Source of the DNA: a virus
Taxonomy: Duplodnaviria > Heunggongvirae > Uroviricota > Caudoviricetes
Virus record (IMG/VR): IMGVR_UViG_3300021400_000025
Coordinates: 86,479 to 150,478 of that record
Length of the DNA stretch: 64,000 nt
Direction: 5' to 3' (one strand)
Positions 11,875-36,440 of the stretch are shown in pieces (the stretch's first letter is position 1; every line of letters begins with the position of its first letter). The notes beneath the pieces were generated by a model. It was not told where the DNA came from and searched no databases. It saw nothing but the letters and a program-made list of their open reading frames with translations. A program made the position numbers and the translations under genes.

Positions 11875-12237
11875 TTTTTTTTTTTCATGAAAAACCACAA
11901 TCTCCCAATTTTTCAATGGGGTTTGCGTATAATTGAAGGTGTTGTGTGAATGTCAGGGTTTCATCGGGTTGGATGACTGAAAAGCGAAAACTCGATTGGA
12001 AGTGGTTCGTCCATAGAAAGAGCGCATGTTTTGACTGTGGCAGTGTGTGTATGTATGTGTGTGTTCTGTTTGGCAGAGGGAAGATGCGCTTTGAACCAAA
12101 TCTTGCTTGTATGATGTATATGGGTTCTTCTTTTTCACCTTCTCCCATCAAAATATTCTTCAAAAGAAGGTGATTTTCGTCTCTTTACAATTGCGCGTTG
12201 CTGTGGTATAATTATCTTGAAGGAGAGATACAACAAG

Positions 12238-34190: not shown

Positions 34191-34227
34191 TGTTGATTTC
34201 TTAAACCAAAAAAGGAGAAAGGCAGAA

Positions 34228-34992
34228 ATGTCTGAAGACAGATCCTGGGAACTTGCCCCAGTCTTGTGCAAGTTGAAGAGGAGCGAAGTTCCTCTTGTGT
34301 CGAAAGTGCCACTTGACAAGGCAACTGACCTTGTTGACAAGTGCTTTGACTACAAGTTCACCGGCGAGTCCAAGGTATATCCCTATGAGATTCCCGAGAA
34401 GATTCTGAACCTGGATGTGAACATCATCCAGATTGTCGGACCTTCTGGCTCTGGCAAGTCCACATTCCTCAAGGCGTTCAAGAAGGCTGGTTGGAACTAC
34501 CCCACGAAGTCCTACGACAACACGAAGGCTGTGATTTCCAACTTCATTGACGATCCTGATGATGGTCTCTCCGCCCTCCAGTCTGTTGGGTTGAGTTCTA
34601 TGCCTGTCATCTGCCGTCCTCGCAATGTTCTCTCAACCGGCGAGGGCTTCCGAGCAGACATGGCTCTGAACCTGGGCGATAGGGTCATGGTTGACGAGTA
34701 CACAAGCGTGATTGACCGAAACGTGGCCATGGCCGCTTCCAATGGCATTCAGAAGTACATCCGCAGGAAGGGCTTCAAGAACGTCATTCTCTGTGGTTGC
34801 CACTATGATGTCATTCCCTATGTCAAGCCTGACATCCTCATTGACCTCCAGACAGGCGTGGTATATGATTTCAGGGACAAGGACACAAGGGAACGATTGC
34901 TAAAAAAAGCATCGACCTCTCCTTCCGCCAAATCGAAGGAGCCGGGAAGCGAGAGGTCTGGAAAAAGGTATTCGCTCCACATCACTATCTGA
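34228..34992 (+). CDS. ABC-type ATPase (nucleotide-binding domain only, 254 aa)
   Basis: Walker A GPSGSGKST. ABC signature-like LSTGEG. Walker B RVMVDEYT. D-loop SVID. H-loop CGCH. Confidence 0.65.
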   Translation: MSEDRSWELAPVLCKLKRSEVPLVSKVPLDKATDLVDKCFDYKFTGESKVYPYEIPEKILNLDVNIIQIVGPSGSGKSTFLKAFKKAGWNYPTKSYDNTKAVISNFIDDPDDGLSALQSVGLSSMPVICRPRNVLSTGEGFRADMALNLGDRVMVDEYTSVIDRNVAMAASNGIQKYIRRKGFKNVILCGCHYDVIPYVKPDILIDLQTGVVYDFRDKDTRERLLKKASTSPSAKSKEPGSERSGKRYSLHITI

Positions 34993-35672
34993 CTGGCAAG
35001 CTTGCCGACAACGCCGACTGCTGGCTCCTTGAATGGGGCGAAACCCTTGTTGGGTTCTGCGCAGTCATGCCCCAGCCATCTGGGACAATGGGTGGAGGAT
35101 GGCGGGTCACTCGTCTCGTAATCCTCCCAGACTTCCAGGGTCTTGGGGTTGGAAGCAGGTTCCTTGACACGATAGCCGAGATGTATGTCAAGCGTGGTCT
35201 GAAGTTGTACATCCGCACAGCCCACATCAAGCTGGGACACTACCTCTCCAAGAACGCCAAGTGGCGCACAACCGCAAGGAATGGCAAGAAGGGCGCGTTC
35301 TCGAATGGGCGCATCAACTGCGTCAAGACCGAGGAGAGCCGACACTCTGTGAATCGGGATTGCTACTCGTTCGAGTATGTTGGCGAAGAGTTCAGGACGA
35401 AGCCCCACAAGGAGATTGTGGTTGACAGCCTCAAGCGCATTGACATGGACGCGATGAAGCGGTATCTTGCTGGGTTGAAGCAGTTGAACTACCTGACGGT
35501 TGTCCACAATGGCGTGCATTCGGCATCTGCCTTGAACGTCCTCTGTAGGGAAATGGGCATCCGCACAGAACTCCTCTACATCAGGGGAGAGGTGTCCAAG
35601 AAGCACCTTGGGGACATGAAGATTGTCTCGTTCGACAAGAATGGCAAGCCCAGGTTCAGAAAGGTGAGTTGA
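34869..35672 (+). CDS. GNAT-fold acetyltransferase domain encoded in the -1 frame. It has no start codon before ATG 35067, so it is probably fused to the ABC ATPase by a -1 frameshift at A7 (34902-34908)
   Basis: The open frame begins right after TGA 34866. GNAT motif A is QGLGVGSRFL. The N-terminal GNAT strands lie upstream of ATG 35067, where there is no ATG, GTG or TTG and no SD. Confidence 0.45.
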   Translation, partial: FQGQGHKGTIAKKSIDLSFRQIEGAGKREVWKKVFAPHHYLTGKLADNADCWLLEWGETLVGFCAVMPQPSGTMGGGWRVTRLVILPDFQGLGVGSRFLDTIAEMYVKRGLKLYIRTAHIKLGHYLSKNAKWRTTARNGKKGAFSNGRINCVKTEESRHSVNRDCYSFEYVGEEFRTKPHKEIVVDSLKRIDMDAMKRYLAGLKQLNYLTVVHNGVHSASALNVLCREMGIRTELLYIRGEVSKKHLGDMKIVSFDKNGKPRFRKVS

Positions 35673-35673
35673 T

Positions 35674-35946
35674 ATGACAGTCGCTGAAATGAAAAAGGTT
35701 CTTGACGAACTGCCAGATGATTATGAAATCCCCGTGCTCACTTGGCTCTTCAAGGAGAATCACCCCTATCTTGTTTCTGAGGACTTCCACCACTTCATTG
35801 AGAAGATGGATGAGAAGGACTTGGACATCAAGGACATATGCTGGGAATTGTCCCTGCTTGGGGATTCGCAGGAGGATCTTGGCAAGGGTCATCTTGTGAA
35901 CAACATCTGGGAGATTGTGAATTATTTACAGAGGTTCATGAAATGA
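35674..35946 (+). CDS. hypothetical protein (90 aa)
   Basis: ORF track. Confidence 0.45.
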   Translation: MTVAEMKKVLDELPDDYEIPVLTWLFKENHPYLVSEDFHHFIEKMDEKDLDIKDICWELSLLGDSQEDLGKGHLVNNIWEIVNYLQRFMK

Positions 35947-36440
35947 AAGTTCTGTTCCTTGACATTGATGGGGTTCTCAACTGCATGTGTCCAACGCCCA
36001 TGCAGGACAACGATTGGATTGACCTTGACGAGTGGCGTTACGGCTTCAATCCAGACCTTGTTGCGCGCCTTCGCTATGTCATTGGGAACACAGATTGCAA
36101 AATCGTGTTCTCCTCCTCATGGCGGCACCACAAGACATACGCCCCCTACCAACCAGACAGGAACTGGAGGGATGTCCTTGCCGAGAAGTTGAGAAGAGAA
36201 CGGGACGAGTTGTTCGTCGGGGAGACTCCATCCGACCCAAAGGGCATCCGTGGTCTTGAAATCAACCAATGGCTTTCAGAGCATCCGGGGGTTGAATCGT
36301 TCTGCGTTGTTGACGACGAGGTTGTTGACATTTTCCCATACATGGACAATTCAAGGGTTGTCAAGACTGACATGACTGTTGGATTGACCATTGAGAGCGC
36401 AAGGCGTATAATAGACGTATTGAACAAGGAAGGAAGGTAA
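35943..36440 (+). CDS. HAD-superfamily phosphatase (polynucleotide 3'-phosphatase / nucleotidase-like)
   Basis: Track ORF 35838..36440. The ATG at 35943 overlaps the previous stop (ATGA). Motif I FLDIDGVLN, motif II IVFSSSW, motif IV VVDDEVVD. Confidence 0.65.
   Translation: MKVLFLDIDGVLNCMCPTPMQDNDWIDLDEWRYGFNPDLVARLRYVIGNTDCKIVFSSSWRHHKTYAPYQPDRNWRDVLAEKLRRERDELFVGETPSDPKGIRGLEINQWLSEHPGVESFCVVDDEVVDIFPYMDNSRVVKTDMTVGLTIESARRIIDVLNKEGR

Follow-up and report, generated by a model that had tools for sequence, protein, structure and literature searches.

A probable programmed −1 ribosomal frameshift joining ABC ATPase and GNAT acetyltransferase domains in a phage gene

How does a phage make a GNAT acetyltransferase when the reading frame that encodes it has no start codon ahead of the conserved N-terminus? 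The question is raised by one locus in a 64-kb stretch of Caudoviricetes DNA (IMG/VR record IMGVR_UViG_3300021400_000025), referred to below as the window; all positions are window based. On the plus strand, open reading frame 1 (ORF1; 34228 to 34992, from ATG 34228 to TGA 34990 to 34992) encodes an ABC ATPase domain and a 27-codon zero-frame tail. The GNAT acetyltransferase and a C-terminal domain (CTD) are encoded in the −1 frame on the same strand (34908 to 35672). A sequence-only reading of this DNA had left two options, namely, a programmed −1 frameshift at a run of seven A residues (A7) or a homopolymer indel. Comparison with related sequences makes it very probable that the locus is a single gene whose full product is made through programmed −1 ribosomal frameshifting.

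We found that the −1 frame opens right after the TGA at 34866 to 34868, so a frameshift must fall between 34869 and 34989. The frame is open from 34869 to 35672, and its first ATG, GTG, or TTG is ATG 35067, which lies 158 nucleotides (nt) past the A7 run. Both points had been read correctly from the sequence, as had the nature of the run itself. It lies at 34902 to 34908, inside the overlap with the 3′ end of the ABC ORF, and is a classic −1 slippery heptamer, A_AAA_AAA, of the canonical X_XXY_YYZ form and in register with ORF1 (CTA AAA AAA GCA). This is the only plus-strand A7 in the 64 kb, and the two strands together hold 2 such sites versus the ~16 expected by chance. The sole other long A/T homopolymer in the window is a plus-strand T11 run at 11875 to 11885.

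Past the heptamer, a 5-nt spacer (GCATC; 34909 to 34913) is followed by a hairpin at 34914 to 34958, the putative stimulator. Its 5′ arm lies at 34914 to 34926 (GACCUCUCCUUCC), and its 3′ arm lies at 34945 to 34958 (GGAAGCGAGAGGUC). The hairpin has 13 bp, one bulge, and an 18-nt loop and folds at −23.3 kcal/mol, with a z-score (z) of −1.4 to −2.4 depending on the flanks. Upstream, the plus strand carries AAGGGAA at 34887 to 34893. It contains AGGGA, and its GGG is 10 nt before the heptamer; by analogy with dnaX, this candidate element may act as a Shine-Dalgarno (SD)-like stimulator of frameshifting. A G-rich element is found 8 to 10 nt 5′ of the heptamer in nine of the ten frameshifted sequences described below (it is weak in L008), and it also encodes conserved Arg-Gly or Arg-Glu codons.

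The predicted product of the shifted frame has a coherent modeled fold. With A34908 read twice, 34228 to 34908 is joined to 34908 to 35672 (stop codon, TGA 35670 to 35672), which gives a trans-frame product of 481 amino acids (aa). Its predicted junction peptide is ...ERLLKKSIDLSFR, in which the −1 frame side reads SIDLSFR after LLKK. Without the frameshift, the ORF1 product is 254 aa, and its stop lies 81 nt past the A7 run. The ABC motifs in ORF1 are complete (GPSGSGKST, LSTGEGFR, VMVDEYTS, and CGCHYD, i.e., Walker A, signature, Walker B, and H-loop), and their residues are invariant across a 99-sequence alignment. The ABC and GNAT parts are collinear in one polypeptide only when the −1 shift is applied, and phrog_11143 matches the fused product as a single stretch (residues 24 to 389; E, 5e-83). 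AlphaFold 2 (AF2) modeled the 481-aa product with a predicted local distance difference test score (pLDDT) of 91.7 and a predicted template modeling score (pTM) of 0.87; across the junction (residues 221 to 240), the pLDDT was 93 to 95. Foldseek matched ABC nucleotide-binding domains (NBDs) at a probability of 1.00, and AF2 agreed on the ABC fold.

The first ATG of the −1 frame (35067 to 35069; residue 281) is likely the start that a gene caller would give to a second ORF, not the functional N-terminus. About 53 codons of conserved GNAT N-terminus precede it and contain no start codon. The sequence-only reading had put the beginning of the GNAT domain about 60 codons upstream of this ATG; homology does begin upstream, with the Pfam Acetyltransf_1 match covering residues 245 to 329 of the fused product (E, 5e-8), and the count needs correcting to about 53. 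GNAT motif A (consensus Q/R-x-x-G-x-G/A; here QGLGVGSRFL, with QGLGVG at residues 304 to 309) lies 3′ of ATG 35067. In the AF2 model, β1 (residues 232 to 236), α1 (residues 239 to 252), β2, and most of β3 are encoded before ATG 35067 (residues 232 to 282), and W245, F249, H253, and Y254, which are invariant in the 99-sequence alignment, are all 5′ of M281. A start at ATG 35067 would thus yield a crippled GNAT, since these elements and the four invariant residues would be missing. We found no ATG, GTG, or TTG in the −1 frame before the four invariant residues and the HHYL motif in any of the eight complete lineages, and the position of the first such codon varies from +80 to +179 nt past the heptamer among relatives. 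For the GNAT frame, we found no SD at a usable distance in the A7 lineages.

The arrangement is conserved. Homologs are designated here by L numbers for loci and P numbers for proteins. From the DNA of protein-search matches and from loci retrieved by the stem pattern, we assembled ten distinct frameshifted sequences (the window, L005/L006, L008, L102, L009, L104, L012, L014, and L016). The split, the spacer, and the stem of the window thus recur in nine further distinct relatives, which come from independent assemblies, in support of the programmed option. Amino acid identity among the relatives is 59 to 94% where computed, and the eight complete genes reach down to 59% pairwise. L005 (the same as L007) and L006, assemblies that are ~91% identical in nucleotides, retain the same A7 and frames. 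ABC-only ORFs from the protein search (P0010, P0011, P0013, P0014, and P0074; 50 to 73% identity) share a common zero-frame tail, ...TSPS...SERSG...ITI followed by the stop codon. The heptamer occupies the same codons throughout: it is CTA_AAA_AAA in five of the ten (including L008 and L102) and CTG_GGA_AAA in the other five (L009, L104, L012, L014, and L016). The G_GGA_AAA lineages with the split reach 59 to 65% aa identity to the window, and their A run is only 4 to 5 nt.

In all ten sequences, a 5-nt spacer and then the same stem arms follow the heptamer. Six lineages have the window-type hairpin as their minimum free energy fold (−19 to −23 kcal/mol; z, −1.6 to −2.5). Of the 12 stem pairs tested in the ten sequences, 11 never vary, and 99.2% of cells are paired. 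The sequence-only reading had suggested looking for a downstream stem-loop or pseudoknot; the stem-loop is there in 10 of 10, exactly 5 nt past the heptamer, and is absent in in-frame relatives, while a pseudoknot is unsupported. The pseudoknot candidate, which would pair loop GGAGC with a downstream GCUCC in the FAPHH codons, was rejected because GGAG is found at nonhomologous positions among lineages, in some cases overlapping stem 1. In eight of eight complete genes, the −1 frame is open for 249 to 256 codons, to the conserved C-terminus. Additional searches did not extend this set: blastn of the phage collection with the window DNA returned no near relative, a degenerate WKIFAPHHYL pattern found no additional loci in viral contigs, and a stem-pattern search of genome contigs, aimed at finding a host, gave only three unrelated chance matches, in Verrucomicrobiota and Cytophagales metagenome-assembled genomes.

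Between the window and L005, the ratio of nonsynonymous to synonymous substitution rates (dN/dS) is 0.06 in the ABC part, 0.15 to 0.26 in the −1 frame 5′ of ATG 35067, and 0.10 in the remainder. The −1 frame is under purifying selection. At the junction, synonymous differences fall to 0.49 of expectation versus 1.05 in the rest of the gene (protein-retrieved sequences only), and the lowest synonymous-variation windows of the whole gene are codons 230 to 246, which are the stem. The window and L005 have zero synonymous changes in the overlap, and dS is 0.62 just after it.

A natural comparison is offered by relatives in which the two domains are encoded in one frame. The closest full-length relatives (P0001 to P0009; 471 to 482 aa, 60 to 63% identity) are single ORFs that align unbroken across the junction. 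The heptamer and the stem are absent from the junction DNA of in-frame L017 and L018, where the region folds at −7 kcal/mol (z, +0.9), and folded L020 likewise lacks both. Using the ABC and GNAT halves separately as tblastn queries, we then compared the frames at 101 fetched loci and found 84 in frame, 17 at −1, and 0 at +1, a fraction that is not an estimate of prevalence, since 80 of the loci were ranked in a way favoring in-frame genes. The complete absence of +1 splits is informative despite this ranking bias. Comparison with homologs, which the sequence-only reading had proposed, favors the programmed option: because the two domains form a single ORF in the nearest in-frame relatives and in most of the family, the ABC-GNAT fusion is the functional unit. 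No homolog supplies a separate conserved GNAT start. As a folding control, we took the 72 nt 5′ of HHYL at loci with a locatable motif. The mean z was −2.19 in the frameshifted loci (n = 17) versus −0.05 in the in-frame loci (n = 73). Structure at the junction tracks the frameshift, not the protein sequence.

Two further clades show an apparent −1 frameshift. In a neighbor-joining tree of the ABC domain, built without support values, clade A groups the window lineages, clade B (L001, L011, and L084) adjoins clade A, and the in-frame P0001 to P0009 are nested inside; this nesting suggests that the in-frame state of P0001 to P0009 is a secondary fusion. Clade B consists of metagenomic and Thomasclavelia phages, in which the homologous Leu-Gly-x codons read YTG_GGG_GAR. 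Hairpins of 12 to 13 bp, unlike that of the window clade, lie 4 to 6 nt past the G run in L011 and L084 (z, −2.6 and −2.2), and folding gave no significant hairpin in L001 or L002. Possible independent GNAT starts (TTG/GTG or ATG) are present in L001 and L084, with a possible SD as well in L001. In this Thomasclavelia phage (TR-TP2; L001 3633 to 3660), GGGGGAG lies 8 nt before an in-frame TTG/GTG of the GNAT frame. Judging from this arrangement, L001 may have given up frameshifting for a GNAT gene that has its own start and is translationally coupled.

Clade C, which is distant in the tree, is made up of Lactococcus P335, prophages of Streptococcus, and phages of Oenococcus. Among GenBank records, 17 of 17 in clade C are split at −1, including Sanger-era isolate genomes (P335 and S. 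pyogenes prophages), and the 41 records that belong to neither clade B nor clade C have the gene unbroken. At the seven clade C loci examined, the −1 frame overlap is 100 to 103 nt, and the frame lacks a start codon upstream of HYHYL. In the Streptococcus and Lactococcus members, GGTTTTT is followed, after a 5-nt spacer, by a CCCCCAC...GUGGGGG hairpin (z, −2.3 to −5.8), which shows a few compensatory pairs. Clade C too thus appears to have a −1 frameshift at the ABC/GNAT junction. The signal lies at L003 3436 to 3512, with equivalents in L004, L106 to L109, and GenBank DQ838728, AY050245, NC_004587, OL774867, and others, and in the annotations the halves stand as two genes, one "ABC transporter" and the other "hypothetical/GNAT." Clades B and C thus have different heptamers and hairpins at the same junction as the window clade; their slip sites (G_GGG_GAR in clade B and G_GTT_TTT versus C_CCC_CAC in clade C) are not fixed to the nucleotide. 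In L108 (Streptococcus phage Javan420, MK448933; 876 to 1085), the −1 GNAT ORF is only 69 codons and the match is in three pieces, probably an additional genuine disruption. Two viral contigs, L099 (541 to 2240) and L101 (1501 to 3161), have an ABC-GNAT match spanning ~1,700 nt for ~375 residues, which implies a ~550-nt insertion inside the gene (intron, intein, or homing-endonuclease-like).

Several observations weigh against programmed frameshifting in the window clade or soften the evidence for it. The difference in folding z gave a Mann-Whitney p of ~1e-7, a value that overstates independence because the sequences are related. Four of the ten frameshifted sequences were retrieved by a pattern that fixes the stem arms. 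With 11 of 12 pairs invariant, no covariation is possible in the window-clade stem. The arms also encode conserved residues (IDLSF and KREVW) and overlap the zero-frame tail, and dual coding with this 27-codon tail may be a partial source of the nucleotide conservation. In single sequences, the hairpin exceeds shuffled sequence in stability by a modest margin only (z, −1.4 to −2.7), and an AAA codon in the A site is generally thought to be less slippery than AAG in Escherichia coli. Finally, the in-frame clade (L017/L018/L020/L021) is also lowest in synonymous variation just 5′ of HHYL (codons ~217 to 237 of P0002). This low-variation region surrounds a frequently conserved internal Met (KNKMNF) and might mark an internal start or some other embedded element.

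We weighed four other explanations for the split. A sequencing or assembly error, with the true genome having A8 or another indel and hence a plain in-frame fusion, would suit both the error-proneness of homopolymers and the in-frame state of most of the family. However, this A7 recurs in L005 and L006, in L008 and L102, and in at least three independent assemblies of ORF1 itself; five lineages are split on GGGAAAA, where the A run is short; and the absence of +1 splits among the 101 loci and the split Sanger-era isolate genomes of clade C speak against an error as well. Since half of the relatives have G_GGA_AAA instead of A7 at the same codon, a homopolymer miscall does not account for their split, and the indel option of the sequence-only reading is all but excluded; we regard an error as exceedingly unlikely. 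An inactivating mutation, which would leave the GNAT part a decaying pseudogene and only the ABC ATPase made, seems just as hard to credit. It would explain a GNAT part without a start codon and a zero frame that ends shortly after the run, but the −1 frame has stayed open at full length in eight lineages diverged to 59% aa identity, dN/dS downstream of the shift is 0.10 to 0.26, and the heptamer, spacer, and stem are conserved. We found no stops or indels in the −1 frame of the clade A relatives (eight complete lineages) and no dN/dS near 1 (window versus L005).

The other two explanations have the GNAT part made from the sequence as it stands. In programmed transcriptional slippage, RNA polymerase would add one A within A7, and some mRNAs would encode an in-frame fusion. 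A change from A7 to A8 in the mRNA yields exactly the −1 frame product, and A/T runs cause RNA polymerase slippage in insertion sequence (IS) elements and in Thermus dnaX. Known programmed slippage sites, though, usually have at least nine A/T, and the window has seven; half of the lineages have GGGAAAA(A/G), whose 4 to 5 A residues are too short for efficient polymerase slippage and which is a canonical ribosomal heptamer, and a hairpin conserved at exactly 5 nt is a feature of ribosomal, not transcriptional, slippage. Transcriptional slippage is therefore improbable as the mechanism, and it may make a minor contribution in the A7 lineages. The remaining explanation is that two proteins are made, an ABC-only protein and a GNAT-CTD protein whose start is either a conserved Ile codon at residue 229 (ATC/ATT) or, through reinitiation, ATG 35067. 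In its favor are a GGGA 5 nt before ATT in the G_GGA_AAA lineages, the Met that in-frame relatives often have at the equivalent position (KNKMNF), and the possible TTG/GTG or ATG starts of L001 and L084 in clade B. Yet half of the lineages, the window among them, have ATC as this codon, and ATC initiates very poorly in bacteria; the A7 lineages lack a usable SD; and the Ile codon lies 1 nt before a 13-bp stem. Reinitiation at ATG 35067 would cost the protein β1, α1, β2, most of β3, and the four invariant residues, and the first canonical start varies in position by nearly 100 nt among relatives (+80 to +179). We consider separate initiation highly improbable.

Programmed ribosomal frameshifting would work at this locus as follows. 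Ribosomes would initiate at ATG 34228, translate the ABC ATPase domain, and be slowed at CTA_AAA_AAA (34902 to 34908) by the 13-bp hairpin starting 5 nt downstream and perhaps also by pairing of 16S rRNA with AGGGA 10 nt upstream. A fraction would slip back by one base, with two tRNA-Lys molecules re-pairing on AAA AAA, and continue in the −1 frame to produce the 481-aa ABC-GNAT-CTD protein. Ribosomes that do not slip would stop at TGA 34990 and release the 254-aa ABC-only protein. We infer the ribosomal nature of the slippage, its efficiency, and the manufacture and use of both products, along with the role of the SD-like element. A reasonable idea is that frameshifting would set a fixed ratio of ABC-only protein to fusion, giving mixed ABC dimers.

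Ten nucleotides 5′ of the ORF1 start, the plus strand reads GGAG (34214 to 34217), an SD read from the sequence, which points to SD-type initiation in the host. Three contigs, among them a 416,990-bp scaffold (ENA ERZ28612966 scaffold_7), encode exactly the ORF1 protein, and the window is on this basis part of a jumbo phage. Nearly all ORFs of the phage scaffold are on the plus strand, and a tRNA-Arg gene (anticodon TCT) lies at window positions 23184 to 23259. The neighbors of the ABC-GNAT gene encode proteins of unknown function and a HAD_SAK_2 phosphatase domain protein (35838 to 36440; Pfam E, 1.6e-27), the latter two genes 3′ of the frameshift gene. A HAD_SAK_2 gene also directly follows the GNAT ORF in L009 and L105, so this neighborhood is conserved.

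The enzyme belongs to the phage ABC-ATPase/GNAT family (phrog_11143), for which DNA-base acylation is predicted. The fused product matches the Tenacibaculum phage pT24 member, and for a family described as a "GNAT coupled with an ABC ATPase," with pT24 named, Iyer, Aravind, and colleagues predict a transfer of an uncharacterized acyl group to a base of DNA (PMC7824862, which cites Iyer 2013). In small phages, the family gene adjoins DNA methylase or ParB-like genes, and such neighbors fit the predicted DNA-base acylation. Most members of phrog_11143 are single in-frame ORFs of ~350 to 400 aa; the window member differs in being split at −1 and in having an extra ~90-aa C-terminal domain. Sequence and fold searches of the PDB returned generic ABC NBDs and GNATs only, and PADLOC and NCBIfam gave only weak generic P-loop and RimI-like matches.

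The recurrence of −1 splits raises the question of what they might be for. The signals differ between groups: A_AAA_AAA or G_GGA_AAA with the GACCUCUCC hairpin in the jumbo phages versus G_GTT_TTT with the CCCCCAC/GUGGGGG hairpin in Streptococcus and Lactococcus prophages. Since ABC ATPases function as dimers of the ATP-sandwich type, asymmetric dimers with a single acetyltransferase are conceivable. It is possible, though we hold the idea only tentatively and think it rather doubtful, that ABC/GNAT frameshifting is a recurrent, selected ratio device, with at least two origins and unrelated signals, and that such asymmetric dimers would act on DNA or another macromolecule during infection. If true, a phage nucleic-acid-modification enzyme would have a device for setting stoichiometry like that of dnaX, and S. 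pyogenes prophages would be among its carriers.

There is also a practical consequence. Gene callers break the gene in two, naming the first part "ABC transporter ATP-binding protein" and the second, truncated part "hypothetical / GNAT," and the same is seen in GenBank phage records. Recognizing the frameshift would give the correct 481-aa enzyme and fix annotation across the family, including in Streptococcus pyogenes and Lactococcus P335-type prophages. Cultivable relatives (P335, group A Streptococcus prophages, and Thomasclavelia phages) make the role of the ABC-only product directly testable.

Well-documented programmed frameshifts of phages are concentrated in tail-chaperone genes and a few capsid genes. 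The present case would be a conserved frameshift in an enzyme predicted to modify DNA, one that switches between two canonical heptamers, comes with a natural in-frame control clade, and apparently recurs independently in prophages of cultivable Gram-positive bacteria. Judged by the class names alone, the motifs here appear to fit the PRFect classes "six," "threethree," "twofive," and "five" (PMC10885494). Our literature searches found no report of frameshifting in the ABC-ATPase/GNAT gene family; in the literature searched, this is a known type of recoding in a gene without an earlier report of it.

Among known proteins, TmcA and NAT10 resemble the fused product in coupling a P-loop NTPase to a GNAT in one polypeptide, and TmcA (2zpa) appeared in the fold search. 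However, its TM-score was only 0.24, its NTPase is helicase-like and not ABC, and the two have no sequence relationship, so the likeness is an analogy only. The signal resembles those of known recoding systems. In the IS3 family (IS911 and IS150), orfA/orfAB pairs an A_AAA_AAG-type heptamer with an SD-like element upstream and a structure downstream; the frameshift fuses two domains into the active enzyme, and the truncated zero-frame product may regulate that enzyme. The window gene differs in that it is not a transposase and sits in a jumbo-phage genome among conserved neighbors. The slippery sequence of lambda G/GT, G_GGA_AAG, has low efficiency without a strong downstream structure. It also belongs to a phage gene, is nearly identical to the G_GGA_AAA of half of our relatives, and extends a short protein to a longer fusion at a fixed ratio; the product there is a virion (tail) assembly factor, whereas here it is an enzyme. 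E. coli dnaX combines an SD-like element ~10 nt upstream, an A-rich X_XXY_YYZ heptamer read by tRNA-Lys, and a stable hairpin 5 to 6 nt downstream. The window has a heptamer and a hairpin in the same arrangement, with a candidate SD-like element upstream, and in both cases a short and a long product would have a common ATPase domain. The gene families are unrelated, and the window clade has A_AAA_AAA or G_GGA_AAA, not A_AAA_AAG. The outcome is also reversed: frameshifting in dnaX yields the short product (gamma), whereas in the window the predicted frameshift product is the long ABC-GNAT fusion and the zero-frame product is the short one.

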